A stretch of 64,000 nucleotides of DNA, taken from Desulfomonilaceae bacterium (lineage in GTDB: Bacteria > Desulfobacterota > Desulfomonilia > Desulfomonilales > Desulfomonilaceae). The position numbers were made by a program, and so were the translations under genes. This document shows, in pieces, positions 5,472 through 11,173 of the stretch (position 1 is its first letter; each line of letters opens with the position of its first letter). Below the pieces are notes generated by a model. The model saw nothing but the letters and a program-made list of their open reading frames with translations. It was not told where the DNA came from and ran no database searches. Location: NCBI GenBank assembly GCA_049969795.1, contig JBMFOE010000003.1, positions 11,184-75,183 on the forward strand. The letters run 5' to 3'.

Positions 5472-6227
5472 TCACGAGCGGGAGACGCACAGCCGCTCGA
5501 TATCCCGCTGCACCTCCTTATCCTGAAACGCCGCTGGATCCTCGAGGTAACGGTTAATGACGTCCCATTCCATGGGATGCATGAATTCCTTGAGCGTGTG
5601 AATGCCCGCGGATTTGAATGGGATCAATCGCAGTAAATTCACGCCAAGCTTTTTAGCTGCCTCCTCGCCGCCTTGTTCTCGGTCAATGACCACGGCGACG
5701 ACGGAGCACACAACGTTGGGGATGCTTCGCCTGGTCAACTCATGTCTGACTTGCTCCAAGGCAATAAGTTTGCTGTCGAAACGCGTCACGAGATCGTCGA
5801 TGAGCGCGAGCCGGTCCCCCGGGACAATTTCTCCTTCCACAAGCGCATGCTCTCCATAAGATGAGATGGTTTTTTGAAGCATCTCAATATTCTTGACTCC
5901 TTCGAGCTTGCGAGTGAAGGCCGCTGGCATGTTGGCGGCAATGGCCATGCCTGCCACGAGGGGAATGCCCGCCATAGCAATGCCGACGGCCTTGTTTATG
6001 TCTGCCGCCTCTTCTTGGAGTAAGCGGCCCATGGCTTGGCAAATGAGCCGAAATCCATGAGGATAGGACAGAATCGGGCGGAGCTGGATGTACAGGGGAC
6101 TGTAAAGCCCTGAAATAAGCGTCCAGCCTGACGGTTTGTCGCGATAAAACGTTTTGATCATGCCGGCCTGATAAAGAAACGCCAGGATTTGGCGGCCAAG
6201 ATCCATTTTTTCTTCTTCCCAAGTCAT
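5472..6227 (-). CDS. orotate phosphoribosyltransferase-like (type I PRTase fold) protein
   Basis: PRPP-loop-like RLALIDDLVTRFDSK and PyrE-like N-terminal half. Start chosen at MTWEEEK (ATG 6227), not at the longer upstream ORF. Confidence 0.55.
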   Translation of the reverse strand: MTWEEEKMDLGRQILAFLYQAGMIKTFYRDKPSGWTLISGLYSPLYIQLRPILSYPHGFRLICQAMGRLLQEEAADINKAVGIAMAGIPLVAGMAIAANMPAAFTRKLEGVKNIEMLQKTISSYGEHALVEGEIVPGDRLALIDDLVTRFDSKLIALEQVRHELTRRSIPNVVCSVVAVVIDREQGGEEAAKKLGVNLLRLIPFKSAGIHTLKEFMHPMEWDVINRYLEDPAAFQDKEVQRDIERLCVSRS

Positions 6228-6577: not shown

Positions 6578-6828
6578 CAGAAATTTCGAGCCATAGTACA
6601 CAGTGATCTCTGGATATTTTTAGAAAAACGACCGTAGTCAAACGCGTTCCGCGAAACCTCGGGGAGGGGCGCGTTGCCTCGTCAAGGAACGTATTTTGGG
6701 AAGTGTAAATCCAAGTCATCGTAGAACCCGCGCAAAGCCCGCGCAGCGTCTAGGGCTTTCAATTTGACTGAGGCGCGTAAAGAGTGTAACTTTCGCATAA
6801 TGTGTGAAAACCATTGAGGATGAGTCTT

Positions 6829-8445
6829 ATGTTAAAGAACAGGCATATACTGATCATAGGCGCGCGTGCGGGGGGCTATGGCGAGGGGATAGCGAAAGCG
6901 GCTGTTCGCGGGGGCGCCACGGTGTTCGGCACCACACTAAATCCTGAAGAGCCTCGTGAGGCGGCGTTCTTTCAGGACCTGGGGATTTCTCTGGTGGAGA
7001 TCCCTTTGCGGTATGATGCGGATAAGCGGGCTGCAGTGCAAGAGCGCTGCCGGGAGATTGGGCAATACCTCAAGGCGCGAGGGGTAGATAGGCTCGATGC
7101 GGTGGTGCACGCGGTCGCGGGGGGATTCCCGCGGCAGCCGTCGGTGATGAAGGCCGTGGGCGACATTCTCAGGGGTAAGCAGACGTTCTCCGACATGGCC
7201 ACGCTCGTGAGAAAGAACGTCTATTACGTGAATGCAATCTCTTTCCAAGATACGATCGCAGGACTCCAAGACGTCTGCGACGATCAGACGCAATATGTCG
7301 CGCTGACCTATCGCGGGGAATTGCCCTATTTTATTTCAGACACCAAGAGGCATCTGGAATACATTGCTGCTCGATTGGCGCGAGAAGGCAAAAGAACTCT
7401 CGTAGTTGCCTTGCCTGAGGCGTGGACGCAATCCTCTCAATTTTTCACGGGCATTGAATTGGCAATCGTGTATAACTACCTGCAGATGAAGGACATTGCC
7501 GATGATGCGCCGCTGGACATGGGGGAATCCTTTCAGCGCATGGAGTCGTCTTTGGCTGCATTGGCTGGATGGAGCGGCGTGCTGGATTCTCTCAGGTCAT
7601 ACCTTCACGCAGAATGGGCGACCATCGCAAGCTCACAAGATTCGGCTCGGCTGTGGAACATGGTGCAAGAGCTTTTTGCTCGCATGCGCAAAGATGGAAC
7701 GTTCCCAGTGTTGAGGAAGGCAGTCGAAATTATTTCGGAATTTGTGAGAGAAGGCAGCGGGGTCATCCTCGCGAGGGAATTCCTCGCGGGCAATAAGTTC
7801 AATGCAGGCGACGTGCGTCAGGTGTTCTGTCATCACTTTGTGAGACAAAGCGAAGTTCCTTGCGCCCCGCCGCGACCACCTCGGACGGCCCCAGCAGTCC
7901 TCAGGCGGCGCTGGGTAGAGTACGACAAGGAAGAAATTCGCCAGACCCTGAAGATGTATGGCGCAAACTTTCTCTTTCTCGACAAGGTGATTATGGAGGC
8001 CGGCGGTTTCCGCAATGGCCTGATGGGGTTTGGAAAATACACGGTGCCGTCTCCCGAGACAAATCCTATTTTGAGAGACCATTTTGTGGGGATGCCGCTC
8101 TTCGGGGGTCATCTACAAATGGAAGCGGTCGCGCAACTCGGCACCTTTATGATCATGAAGCTCCTCAAAGATAGAAGGCTCGTCCCCATACTGACTGGTA
8201 CGGAATTCCCGGATCTCAATACCATGGCGCCTCCAGGAGAAACCCTTACCTTCGTGGGCGTCATGGGATTCACCAACAAGAGAGACCTATGGCTGGACGC
8301 CTTTATAGAAAACCGATATGCCAGGTCAAAGGGCGTCATCCGCGGCATGGTGTTGAATGAGCGAGTGGTGCGGAAGATGACAGCGTCTTTCGCTGAGGAC
8401 ATGACGTCGGACGACGACACGGCATTAGCTGGCTGGGAGAAATGA
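6829..8445 (+). CDS. fusion protein: FabV/FabI-like NAD(P)H Rossmann (enoyl-reductase-like) domain + FabZ/FabA-like hotdog dehydratase domain
   Basis: N-terminal ILIIGARAGGYGEGIAKA and ALTYRGELPYFISDTKRHLEY. Pro-rich linker PPRPPRTAP. C-terminal DHFVGMPLFGGHLQMEAVAQLG, a FabZ-like His/Glu motif. GAGGA RBS before ATG 6829; the ORF itself opens at TTG 6814. Confidence 0.6.
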   Translation: MLKNRHILIIGARAGGYGEGIAKAAVRGGATVFGTTLNPEEPREAAFFQDLGISLVEIPLRYDADKRAAVQERCREIGQYLKARGVDRLDAVVHAVAGGFPRQPSVMKAVGDILRGKQTFSDMATLVRKNVYYVNAISFQDTIAGLQDVCDDQTQYVALTYRGELPYFISDTKRHLEYIAARLAREGKRTLVVALPEAWTQSSQFFTGIELAIVYNYLQMKDIADDAPLDMGESFQRMESSLAALAGWSGVLDSLRSYLHAEWATIASSQDSARLWNMVQELFARMRKDGTFPVLRKAVEIISEFVREGSGVILAREFLAGNKFNAGDVRQVFCHHFVRQSEVPCAPPRPPRTAPAVLRRRWVEYDKEEIRQTLKMYGANFLFLDKVIMEAGGFRNGLMGFGKYTVPSPETNPILRDHFVGMPLFGGHLQMEAVAQLGTFMIMKLLKDRRLVPILTGTEFPDLNTMAPPGETLTFVGVMGFTNKRDLWLDAFIENRYARSKGVIRGMVLNERVVRKMTASFAEDMTSDDDTALAGWEK

Positions 8446-9527
8446 TTTCTTCAAAATGGGATCTGAGTCGATCTGCTGAAAAGGTGCATGAACTCGAGGA
8501 GTGTCTGCGGAACCAATCGGCGTCTCGCATCACCATCCTTTGTCACAACAATCCTGATCCCGATACCATTGCAAGCGCCTATGCATTTGATTATCTCTTG
8601 GCAAAAAAATTTGGGGTCCGATCTTTTATCCGCTATGGAGGCGTTATCACGAGGGCTGAAAACAAGGCCATGGTCAAGAGGCTGCGAATCAAGCTGCTCC
8701 CTTTGGAGCGAATCAAGGACGCGCCTACCGACGCGCTGGCCTTGATAGATGCGCAACCCGCTACCGGCAACAACTTGATTTTGTCGAGAGATATCGTCCC
8801 GCTCATTGTGATCGATCACCATCCTTTGAGGCGGGCGACGCAACGCTCCCCTTTTCATGACGTGAGACCCCTGTACGGGTCCACTTCCACCATCATCACG
8901 GAATACCTTGTGGCAGCGGGGCTTACGCCTACGAGATCGGTCGCCAACGCCTTGCTGTATGGACTCAAGACAGATACCGGCTCGTTGGTGCGGACGTCAT
9001 GCAAGTCTGATTTCCGAGCTTTTTCCTTTCTTTCTCCCCTCACCAATCCCCGAGTCCTGGGATGGATAGAAAAGCCCCCGTTGCCCCAGTCATATTTCGA
9101 GGACTACTGTAAAGGCTTGGCGAGCGCCGTCATCTACAAGGACGTCGCGGTATCGTACATTGGCGCAGTGGAGTCAGAAGCCATTGTCCCGGAACTCGCG
9201 GACGTGCTTCTCAGGATCGATCATGTGAGCTGGTCGCTTTGTATGGGACTTGTGGGAAGCGTGCTGGTTCTGTCTCTGCGCTCGAAGTCTCGGAAATACA
9301 AAGCAGGGGTGATGCTCAGGAAGCTCGTGGGAAAAGTAGGGTCGGCAGGTGGCCATCGAGAAATGGCGGGAGGCGTTATGCCCGTGGCCGGCATGACCGA
9401 TGATGAAATAAAGGAGCTCGGCGATGACGTGATCGAAAGGTTCCTTTCCCTCATCGGCCGGAGAGGAAATCGACCAGACAAGCTCATCCACGAAGCGTGG
9501 CGTCGCCTCGACAATCAGGGTCGTTAA
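8442..9527 (+). CDS. DHH/DHHA1-family phosphoesterase (NrnA-like)
   Basis: Motifs HNNPDPDTIAS, IDHH and DHHA1-type GSAGGHREMAGG. The start ATG overlaps the upstream stop (ATGA at 8442-8445). Confidence 0.8.
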   Translation: MISSKWDLSRSAEKVHELEECLRNQSASRITILCHNNPDPDTIASAYAFDYLLAKKFGVRSFIRYGGVITRAENKAMVKRLRIKLLPLERIKDAPTDALALIDAQPATGNNLILSRDIVPLIVIDHHPLRRATQRSPFHDVRPLYGSTSTIITEYLVAAGLTPTRSVANALLYGLKTDTGSLVRTSCKSDFRAFSFLSPLTNPRVLGWIEKPPLPQSYFEDYCKGLASAVIYKDVAVSYIGAVESEAIVPELADVLLRIDHVSWSLCMGLVGSVLVLSLRSKSRKYKAGVMLRKLVGKVGSAGGHREMAGGVMPVAGMTDDEIKELGDDVIERFLSLIGRRGNRPDKLIHEAWRRLDNQGR

Positions 9528-10345
9528 AGATCAGCCCGCGTCGACCAGTATTGCAAAAGCTGCGAGACGAGCTGCCGAGACGTGTACAGCCCTCCTGTCA
9601 TGCCTGCAAAGACGCTCTCGCCGCCAAAAAGCGCTTGAACGATCTCGTCGATCTTGCGACCTTGGCGCTTCATCTCATACGCCCGTGACGCGAGCTCGAG
9701 ATGCCAGTCCATGCAACGCGACAATCGCTCTCTCCCGTTCCTCTCGATGGTTCTCAAGGAAGTGAACAGTATAAGCCTCTCCATGGGGAGTTCGCAGAGT
9801 TTCTTCATGGATGCCAACATCTGCCCGATGTCGTTTTCAGGCGACGCGGTTCGAGGCGTCTGTCCGATATAAAGGTCGCCAGAAAATACCCATCCCTTGT
9901 CTCGTTCCACGATGCAGACATGGCCCCGGCAATGCCCTGGCGCGTCGATCACCTCGAAAGAATGCTTGCTGGTACGGATTTCACGGTGAATTGGCTGAGG
10001 AAACGATGGTTGCGGAGTCCCCCAAAGCCTCTCACGATACTCGGAAAGCGCGGGCGGCCGCTCTATGAACGGAATGGCAAGGGGATGGGCGTACAAGGGG
10101 ATATTAAAGGCATCCTGGAGGAGTCGATTTCCGCCGATGTGATCTTCGTGGTGGTGGCTGTTCACGATGAGTTCTAATTTCTGGGCGGTGAGGTATTCGA
10201 GCAGACTGGTTGCCGAATATGCGGCCCCGGTATCGATCAAGAGGCCGTCGATGAGGTATGCCGAGACCCAGTAGCGCAGACTCCCCTGGGCGTTGGAACA
10301 CATGCGTATCTGGGTTACCTCTTCAAACTGTACAATCTCCAGCAT
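9524..10345 (-). CDS. MBL-fold metallo-hydrolase
   Basis: HHHEDHIGGN (HxHxDH) motif and a later GHCRGH. Start taken at MLEIVQFEE (ATG 10345). Confidence 0.75.
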   Translation of the reverse strand: MLEIVQFEEVTQIRMCSNAQGSLRYWVSAYLIDGLLIDTGAAYSATSLLEYLTAQKLELIVNSHHHEDHIGGNRLLQDAFNIPLYAHPLAIPFIERPPALSEYRERLWGTPQPSFPQPIHREIRTSKHSFEVIDAPGHCRGHVCIVERDKGWVFSGDLYIGQTPRTASPENDIGQMLASMKKLCELPMERLILFTSLRTIERNGRERLSRCMDWHLELASRAYEMKRQGRKIDEIVQALFGGESVFAGMTGGLYTSRQLVSQLLQYWSTRADL

Positions 10346-10400
10346 GATCGATGCGTGCGAAGAAAAGCCTTTCTGCGTGCGCCGTAATAGAGGAGCGGCC

Positions 10401-10940
10401 TCATTCAGTGATGCTGGGAGGCGGAGGGTACGCGGCAGCCCGGACGTAACCGAACATCGAGGCAAAAATGCTCTGGGGAAATACCTCAATCAAATCATTG
10501 TATGTTTGCACACTGCTGTTGTAGCGAGTCCGCGTCAAGCTTACCTTGCTGTTTTTTTTCAAGAAGAGGTCCCATTGGCGCAAAAACGTTGGATGCTGAA
10601 GCATCTCTGGATTGCTGTGGACCAGCGTTTCCAAAGTCTTGATGTCCACATCGAGCTGATCGACGGACGCCATAATCACGTCAGGGTCGCGAGAGCGTTT
10701 TATGACGGCCTTTGCCTCTAGCATCTTGGCCGCGGTCTTTGAAAAAAAAGGTTGAAACATCTTCACTGTCTCGAGCAACCCGGGGAGCATGTCATTCCGC
10801 GCCCTCATCTCAGAAAGGAACTCGTTCCACTCGCGCTGCACATTGGCTCTCCCCTCTTGAAGGGCTGGTCGGAGGAATACAAAGGACATTGCAGAAAAGA
10901 AGAGAAACAGAAATACCGCGGCCACAAGCAACTCGATCAT
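10401..10940 (-). CDS. LemA family protein
   Basis: N-terminal TM helix followed by LemA-like segments (RARNDMLPGLLETVK ... YNSSVQTYNDLIEVFPQSIFASMFG). Confidence 0.6.
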   Translation of the reverse strand: MIELLVAAVFLFLFFSAMSFVFLRPALQEGRANVQREWNEFLSEMRARNDMLPGLLETVKMFQPFFSKTAAKMLEAKAVIKRSRDPDVIMASVDQLDVDIKTLETLVHSNPEMLQHPTFLRQWDLFLKKNSKVSLTRTRYNSSVQTYNDLIEVFPQSIFASMFGYVRAAAYPPPPSITE

Positions 10941-11173
10941 CCGAGCATAGTTCAGCGCGGAACGCTCGAGTGAGAGATCATCCCTGATGCTGTTTTTTGA
11001 AAATTGTTGAGACGGCAAAGCGACTACTCGCAAAAAGTGTCGGCAAATGAGCATGTCATATTATGGCGCATCTCGATGGAGGAGGATTTCATCCATTCCT
11101 CGGGAGGACTGCGCCATACTTGAAATTATACTTAAGAAAAAGCTGACATGCCCATGCAGAAGAAAGCATGCGA

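Follow-up and report, generated by a model that had tools for sequence, protein, structure and literature searches.

A single open reading frame (ORF) that joins a predicted enoyl reductase (ER) to a predicted dehydratase (DH) was found in a 64,000-nucleotide stretch of DNA of a Desulfomonilaceae bacterium (GenBank assembly GCA_049969795.1, contig JBMFOE010000003.1, positions 11,184 to 75,183 of the forward strand), referred to here as the window. We consider it probable that the product of this gene is a bifunctional enzyme of fatty acid synthesis of the type II kind (FAS II), which replaces the separate FabZ and FabI, FabK, FabV or FabL proteins in Desulfomonilaceae. A broader picture is more tentative, the balance being slightly against its holding in full: throughout the class Desulfomonilia, FAS II would dispense with canonical FabZ and, for the most part, with FabI, FabV, FabH and PlsX, and in Desulfomonilaceae one ER-DH polypeptide with a FabMG-like reductase would stand in for both dehydratase and reductase, possibly with direct transfer of enoyl-acyl carrier protein (ACP) and insensitivity to triclosan.

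According to the proposed mechanism, FabF, FabG and AcpP would produce (3R)-hydroxyacyl-ACP, which the C-terminal hotdog domain of the fusion protein would dehydrate to trans-2-enoyl-ACP by means of His423 and Glu437. The N-terminal FabMG-type domain would then reduce this intermediate with NAD(P)H, a cofactor preference that we infer, with Tyr172 as the putative proton donor and Lys178 expected to hold the cofactor ribose. The partners of the fusion protein would be the products of fabD-fabG-acpP-fabF, which are encoded elsewhere in the genome. A preliminary description of this region, made from the sequence alone, had recognised a Rossmann part, a proline-rich linker and a hotdog part in one ORF, and this architecture was confirmed at 6829-8445 of the plus strand. 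Its author had been unable to assign a free-standing DH-ER protein, coupled to a phosphatase of the pAp/oligonucleotide type, to a described pathway; the genome, on inspection, contains a FAS II core devoid of canonical FabZ and FabI, which points to type II synthesis.

The features of the fusion gene are as follows (SDR, short-chain dehydrogenase/reductase); residues are numbered in the 543-residue frame that begins at TTG 6814.

6829..8445, plus strand: ER-DH fusion gene, 538 amino acids (aa) (ORF call; start picked from GAGG and homologue N-termini)
6829..7848, plus strand: predicted FabMG-type SDR enoyl-reductase domain, residues 6-345 (Pfam, Foldseek, profile A3)
6859..6882, plus strand: Gly-rich dinucleotide-binding loop GARAGGYG, residues 16-23 (invariant in homologues)
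7327..7347, plus strand: putative Yx5K catalytic motif YFISDTK, Y172...K178 (invariant; aligns with FabMG Y260...K266)
7849..7911, plus strand: Pro-rich interdomain linker SEVPCAPPRPPRTAPAVLRRR, residues 346-366 (variable columns in the homologue alignment)
7912..8394, plus strand: predicted FabZ-type hotdog dehydratase domain, residues 367-527 (domain model, Foldseek, profile A2)
8080..8124, plus strand: putative catalytic His423...Glu437 segment HFVGMPLFGGHLQME (invariant; aligns with the FabZ HF.....EA.AQ pair)
8442..8445, plus strand: ATGA stop/start overlap of the fusion and DHH genes (sequence)

Two domains in one reading frame

The alternative start, TTG 6814, would give a protein of 543 aa. 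We judged ATG 6829 to be likelier: the sequence GAGG (6816-6819) lies 9-13 nt 5' of it, and the N-termini of homologues coincide with ML(x)GK at this position of their alignment. The stop codon TGA (8443-8445) overlaps the ATG (8442-8444) of a 361-aa ORF, so the ATGA overlap noted in the preliminary description is present, as are the peptides quoted there, which we located at 6859-6882, 7327-7347, 7849-7911 and 8080-8124. Promoter and terminator scans at the locus yielded nothing better than shuffled controls.

That the fusion might be an assembly artefact had been envisaged from the beginning. Homologues of the fusion form 145 clusters among about 5.8 billion proteins (the best 120 of the 145 comprise 502-563 aa and cover at least 90% of the query), and the two-domain frame runs without interruption in 65 genomes of the whole-genome survey described below. 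Since the same unbroken ORF recurs in this many clusters and genomes, it is not an artefact. The protein is named 'hypothetical' in NCBI records; those of JGI call it a dehydratase, some of them recognising an NAD(P)-dependent dehydrogenase half as well. For analysis of conservation we used an alignment (A1) of 31 homologous sequences, 54-79% identical. A search of the PDB with the single sequence produced mostly spurious matches to mitoribosomal uL22m, caused by the Pro-rich linker, and it was therefore repeated with profiles of the separate domains (A3 for the N-terminal domain, A2 for the hotdog). For the full-length protein, AlphaFold2 with the 31 homologues as input gave a model with a pLDDT of 86.8 and a pTM of 0.80; in the linker region pLDDT drops to about 75.

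In the N-terminal half, residues 97-265 match PF22046 (FabMG enoyl-ACP reductase) with 30.4 bits, above the Pfam cut-off of 27; the genome search, in which neighbouring segments were included, gave 32.5 bits. Generic SDR families of Pfam stay below their own cut-offs. When the model was compared with the PDB by Foldseek, the three top matches were FabMG structures (6KI9/6KIA, E 2e-12, TM 0.57-0.58 on target). The other matches among the top 50 were FabI-type enoyl-ACP reductases almost throughout; an entry whose title gives no more than 'SDR glucose-ribitol dehydrogenase' contributed three chains, and FabG was not represented. Profile A3 had FabMG as its sole PDB match at E ≤ 0.01 (E 2.5e-7). 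This alignment pairs Y172 with Y260 of FabMG and K178 with K266, without any offset (YFISDTK against YTQGKAK of 6KI9), and the blocks AGGFPR and PEAWTQSSQFFTGIE correspond to AGGIPK and PEIRTNSSDIFVGVE. Both Y172 and K178, together with G16, A17, R18, G20, G21, Y22 and G23 of the nucleotide-binding loop, are invariant across the homologues.

A review (PMC9260719), which summarises Kim et al. 2020, describes FabMG as an SDR enoyl-ACP reductase of 438 residues that came from a triclosan-resistant clone of a soil metagenome; it bears a Yx5K motif whose Y260F and K266A mutants fail to complement E. coli fabI(Ts). Features that it has in common with the fusion's N-terminal domain are an SDR Rossmann core from which long helices extend, the residue-for-residue correspondence of Yx5K, and two blocks, AGG(F/I)P and PE...SS...G.E. 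The domain of the fusion differs in length (about 340 aa against 438 aa) and in its covalent link with a dehydratase, FabMG being a stand-alone enzyme. Single-sequence HMMER searches of 1.84 billion representatives returned the narrow fusion family alone and no FabMG-like proteins, and the domain is therefore regarded as a separate, narrow subfamily. On the evidence of profiles and the structural model, the N-terminal half is a FabMG-type SDR enoyl reductase, remotely related to FabMG itself. The preliminary description had placed it with FabV/TER- or FabI-type reductases; the assignment to enoyl-reductase-type SDRs stood, and the class did not, being FabMG with its Yx5K rather than FabV/TER or classical FabI. 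It had also considered that this half might lack a functional NAD(P)H site or belong to a non-reductase family; both the nucleotide loop and the Tyr/Lys motif are intact in it, and its kinship is with enoyl reductases.

For the C-terminal half, curated FabZ/FabA models give weak matches of 17-21 bits, short of the equivalog cut-offs, for which reason we call the domain FabZ-type or FabZ-like and not an equivalog-level FabZ. Profile A2 matched 21 distinct FabZ sequences in the PDB with E values from 6e-21 to 5e-13, and FabA at about 1e-3. A separate model of the hotdog reached a pLDDT of 90.4, and its top 50 Foldseek matches in the PDB were FabZ in all 50 cases, with TM of about 0.75-0.85 on target. 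His423 and Glu437, 14 residues apart, are invariant in the alignment A1, and the segment DHFVGMPLFGGHLQMEAVAQ fits the FabZ context HF..P...G.L..EA.AQ in the profile A2 alignment. As in the FabZ proteins of E. coli (6N3P), C. jejuni (3D6X) and P. falciparum (1Z6B), there is a single hotdog with the same His/Glu spacing of 14 residues. In contrast to these proteins, it forms the C-terminal domain of a larger polypeptide, it has additional invariant blocks, PILTGTEFPDLNTMAPPGE and IENRYARS, outside the FabZ signature, and its gene sits elsewhere than between lpxD and lpxA. Judged by profile and fold, the C-terminal half is thus a FabZ-type dehydratase domain below equivalog level. The Pfam and Foldseek comparisons suggested in the preliminary description therefore give a FabMG-type N-terminal and a FabZ-type C-terminal half, and the FabZ/FabA-like hotdog with a His...Glu motif that it had proposed is borne out as FabZ-type (50 of 50 fold matches, E 6e-21).

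Fatty acid synthesis genes in the host genome

The host assembly has 3.69 Mb and is 94.8% complete. It was searched by phmmer, with E. coli proteins from the annotated K-12 record as Fab queries, and by family searches in six frames. The genes fabD, fabG, acpP and fabF lie in series on contig C32, which is not the contig of the fusion; the order at C32:31761-36179 is fabD-fabG-acpP-fabF-rpiB-glyA, and a 194-aa gene upstream occupies the position of yceD in E. coli. Absent from this cluster are plsX and fabH, which are usually part of such clusters. On contig C28 lpxD abuts lpxA, with no fabZ in between.

In all six frames, the sole matches of the genome to TIGR01750 (FabZ) and PF07977 (FabA) come from the fusion ORF itself, and the E. 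coli FabZ query found no match in the genome. The six-frame family search of the genome revealed no FabV. Nor does the genome contain a FabI orthologue, the best match (46 bits) being a generic SDR; the FabI-like matches of up to 46 bits were rejected as FabI because they score far higher, at 135-140 bits, as FabG. Phmmer queries with FabH and PlsX of E. coli and with PlsY of the sister family gave nothing convincing in this 94.8%-complete genome, and lipid synthesis in the lineage therefore seems unusual in several respects. Because the type II core is present and canonical FabZ and FabI are absent, ordinary FAS II would be the natural home of the fusion protein.

A FabK-like protein of the nitronate monooxygenase (NMO) type, 306 aa long and encoded on contig C15, reaches 164 bits where the FabK cut-off is 453, and its orthologues occur in 12 of 70 Desulfomonilaceae genomes. 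As the general enoyl-ACP reductase (ENR) of the family it was rejected on account of this score, this distribution and its acyl-CoA dehydrogenase neighbour; in the present genome it may still act as one. The accessory cluster around it (C15:33041-38566) comprises an ABC-type periplasmic-binding-protein-like gene (judged by eye), the FabK-like NMO gene, an acyl-CoA dehydrogenase gene and a gene for a MaoC-like hydratase, which follows about 3 kb downstream, about 1.7 kb beyond the acyl-CoA dehydrogenase.

The genome has two MaoC-like hotdog genes, and these, along with the poor scores of the fusion's hotdog against curated FabZ models, would be compatible with only one half of the fusion protein being catalytic and the other serving as scaffold or regulator. 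For instance, an active ENR could carry a degenerate, oligomerising hotdog, the true dehydratase being MaoC-like as in mycobacterial HadAB/BC. We regard this as highly improbable: the Gly loop, Yx5K and His423/Glu437 are all invariant in the 31 homologues despite identities as low as 54% (range 54-79%), and one of the two MaoC-like genes belongs to the accessory acyl-CoA dehydrogenase/NMO cluster.

Three giant ORFs of 2673-3590 aa were also found (C13:38202-46271, minus strand; C22:23884-31902, plus strand; C51:257-11026, minus strand). Each encodes an NMO/FabK-like ER, ketosynthase (KS), acyltransferase (AT), ACP, ketoreductase (KR) and a C-terminal DH of the polyketide synthase (PKS) type, and from this predicted domain content they are iterative type I FAS/PKS-like megasynthases.

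Distribution of the fusion in Desulfomonilia

We surveyed 122 genomes of the class, 70 from Desulfomonilaceae and 52 from the sister family. The fusion is present, as a single copy, in 65 of the 70 Desulfomonilaceae genomes, spread over 24 genera; all 52 genomes of the sister family lack it. Four of the five Desulfomonilaceae genomes without the fusion likewise lack the neighbouring DHH gene, and as this gene is otherwise nearly universal, its loss suggests assembly gaps at the locus. Among GTDB species representatives we counted 62 fusion loci, all in metagenome-assembled genomes. The labels Desulfomonilaceae, Desulfomonile or 'Syntrophaceae' are borne by many of these, whereas the remaining ones are named at higher rank alone (Deltaproteobacteria, Thermodesulfobacteriota or, in two cases, 'Pseudomonadota'); no other family is indicated.

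FabF was detected in 67 of the 70 Desulfomonilaceae genomes and exceeds the cut-off in 102 of the 122 genomes of the class. Canonical FabZ (TIGR01750 above cut-off) occurs in 1 of the 122, on a 4-kb contig of a bin of 1100 contigs. True FabI (at least 184 bits) was found in two Desulfomonilaceae genomes and one genus of the sister family, with a third Desulfomonilaceae genome at 136 bits; in the near-complete, two-contig, 6.5-Mb Desulfomonilaceae genome G046, FabI exists besides the fusion. The FAS II core is thus conserved in the absence of the usual dehydratase and reductase, and the fusion is the only family-wide candidate for both.

The presence of the fusion and that of FabZ are not complementary across the class: both are absent from the sister family, and we dropped this as a clean argument. 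The only FabZ-like matches in the sister family are an ApeI-like (122 aa) and an ApeP-like (134 aa) protein, encoded back to back and followed by plsY (locus L035, G079:C4, 7989-9349). This pair may be the FAS II dehydratase of the sister family, and each family of the class seems to have its own dehydratase solution. The present genome has no counterpart of the pair, which was accordingly rejected as a dehydratase here.

One fusion was found outside Desulfomonilaceae. P0127 (locus L046, 6001-7662, on a contig of GCA_054043745.1), a singleton among the collected proteins, is a distant full-length relative of 553 aa and 28% identity, in which Yx5K is retained and the hotdog is annotated as ApeI-like. 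It is encoded among housekeeping genes, with an NMO gene two genes off and no DHH neighbour.

Arguments against the proposed role

Several observations weigh against the fusion protein being the FAS II dehydratase and reductase of the family. The PF22046 match spans only profile positions 155-349 of 431, and the N-terminal domain is only about 17% identical to FabMG 6KI9. The hotdog, at 17-21 bits, does not reach the equivalog FabZ cut-offs (155 for TIGR01750, 113 for NF000582). Both activities are predicted, and ACP, rather than CoA, as the carrier of the substrate is an assumption. The FabK-like NMO gene beside the acyl-CoA dehydrogenase gene is another reductase candidate, and the two MaoC-like hotdogs and the three ER-KS-AT-ACP-KR-DH megasynthases are further candidates in the same genome, in which FabH, PlsX and PlsY were undetected. 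Finally, the sister family keeps FabF and has neither the fusion nor canonical FabZ; therefore, absence of FabZ alone does not implicate the fusion.

Some of these points would fit a specialised function. The fusion protein could act in a dedicated lipid or polyketide route, or on CoA thioesters (in reverse beta-oxidation or fermentation, as a TER-like enzyme), rather than in housekeeping FAS II; it might serve the megasynthases or a dedicated carrier protein. Its gene is located apart from fabD-fabG-acpP-fabF, three PKS/FAS-like megasynthases are available as possible partners, and the failure to detect FabH, PlsX and PlsY hints at non-standard lipid synthesis. Moreover, the hotdog diverges from equivalog FabZ, and that of the distant relative P0127 bears an ApeI-like annotation. 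We nevertheless find such a specialised role rather unlikely. The megasynthases carry ER and DH domains of their own, and the fusion was never seen beside them in the examined loci, its neighbours being housekeeping genes (purA, thrS, rpsU, rpsB, tsf). The fusion gene is single-copy and nearly universal in Desulfomonilaceae, and the conserved FAS II core would otherwise have no candidate for either dehydratase or reductase. Participation in housekeeping FAS II thus appears to be the better explanation.

The DHH gene and the neighbourhood of the fusion

Two genes flanking the fusion bear on its interpretation:

8442..9527, plus strand: NrnA-like DHH/DHHA1 phosphoesterase, 361 aa (Pfam, motifs, PDB relatives)
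5472..6227, minus strand: phosphoribosyltransferase-like gene, divergent, upstream of the fusion (NCBIfam pyrE-type matches, below cut-off)

The identification of the downstream gene as NrnA-like, made in the preliminary description, agrees with our results. Its product exceeds the respective Pfam cut-off both with its DHH domain (36.9 bits, cut-off 28.1) and with its DHHA1 domain (26.6 bits, cut-off 25.9), has the motifs DPD39, DHH125, DTG178 and GGH303, and finds its nearest solved relatives in NrnA/Rv2837c (37 bits, E 2e-8). With NrnA and Rv2837c (CnpB) it shares the DHH plus DHHA1 layout, a length of about 340-360 aa and the DxD, DHH, DTG and GGH motifs; it differs in falling far below the cut-off of the NCBIfam NrnA model NF053633 (16.7 bits against 350). 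It is probably a housekeeping gene of the nanoRNase/pAp-phosphatase type. The roughly 5 kb to each side of the fusion contain no ACP, KS or KR gene, in line with what had been reported for its vicinity.

In 59 of the 65 genomes with the fusion the DHH gene lies directly downstream on the same strand, so the conservation of the neighbourhood, proposed earlier as a check, was indeed found, and a functional tie could still underlie it, which adds to the points weighing against the reading of the fusion as a FAS II enzyme only. Two further genomes are uninformative because of contig ends, and genus g12 and genome G063 lack the adjacency. Overlap of the stop codon with the start codon is restricted to this genome and G055, its closest relative; elsewhere 24-585 nt separate the aligned ends. 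DHH orthologues of 37-45% identity are present in 116 of the 122 surveyed genomes, and no family that lacks the fusion is devoid of them. In the sister-family loci searched with Pfam, a Mut7-C RNase gene precedes the DHH gene; for one of them, L041, the full order rimM-trmD-RNA methyltransferase-rplS-rnhB-Mut7C-DHH was confirmed.

It was conceivable, then, that the fusion and the DHH phosphoesterase make up a functional unit, in which the latter clears 3',5'-ADP (pAp) or acts on the prosthetic group of a carrier protein. The idea is chemically sensible, as pAp is a by-product of holo-ACP synthase, and NrnA-type enzymes are annotated as bifunctional oligoribonucleases/pAp phosphatases. The adjacency is kept although other flanking genes vary, and in this genome the two reading frames even overlap. 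We consider such a unit improbable all the same. The orthologues reach far beyond the fusion, in the sister family they reside within an RNA-processing cluster, gaps of up to 585 nt and the exceptions in g12 and G063 speak against a strict coupling, and no DHH gene is found next to the distant fusion P0127. Furthermore, an unrelated upstream gene is co-conserved, which suggests plain synteny: the phosphoribosyltransferase-like gene (5472-6227), for which no Pfam match was obtained, is retained divergently upstream of the fusion in loci L006 and L007 with 57-58% identity. The link to phosphopantetheinyl transfer through pAp, put forward in the preliminary description, found no support in this distribution and setting. 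Because the orthologues are class-wide, belong to an RNA-processing cluster in the sister family, and overlap the fusion only in the closest relatives, the pairing looks like inherited gene order and not a pathway link. The fusion and DHH genes possibly share a transcript.

Beyond the DHH gene lies a gene for a metallo-beta-lactamase-fold hydrolase (9524-10489, minus strand), convergent with it and overlapping its 3' end by 4 nt. Beside this hydrolase, a LemA-family protein is encoded (10401-11054, minus strand), with a weak match to a MamQ model (20.6 bits).

Relation to known systems and significance

Taken singly, the two domains of the fusion protein are of known kinds; the novelty lies in their free-standing combination and its apparent standard FAS II role in a whole family. 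Searches of a paper library for FabMG, for ER-FabZ fusions and for FAS in Desulfomonile yielded no description of such a protein. A precedent for a FabZ-like domain joined to another lipid enzyme exists in the LpxC-FabZ fusion (NCBIfam NF009667). Dehydration and enoyl reduction are combined on one chain also in the DH-ER portions of type I FAS and PKS. In those, however, the arrangement is different: here the ER precedes the DH, the ER is an SDR of the FabMG/FabI-like kind and not of the medium-chain dehydrogenase/reductase (MDR) or NMO kind, and the protein stands free, without KS, AT, KR or ACP domains. A free-standing protein with dehydratase and enoyl reductase of FAS II would occupy a middle position, with the dissociated type II systems on one side and the megasynthases on the other. 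If our interpretation is correct, it might hand trans-2-enoyl-ACP straight from the dehydratase to the reductase site.

To our knowledge, FabMG-type reductases have so far been represented by one triclosan-resistance clone from a soil metagenome and a crystal structure. Should the proposed role hold, this class would gain a defined natural host family, to which Desulfomonile tiedjei, a cultured species, belongs, and a function that seems to be essential. The class Desulfomonilia keeps FabF, FabG, FabD and AcpP without canonical FabZ, and therefore pathway annotation and completeness scoring of such genomes are misleading. Inhibitors directed against FabI, e.g. triclosan, are expected to miss enzymes of the FabMG type, and the organohalide-respiring hosts of the fusion could then be intrinsically insensitive to triclosan-type inhibitors.

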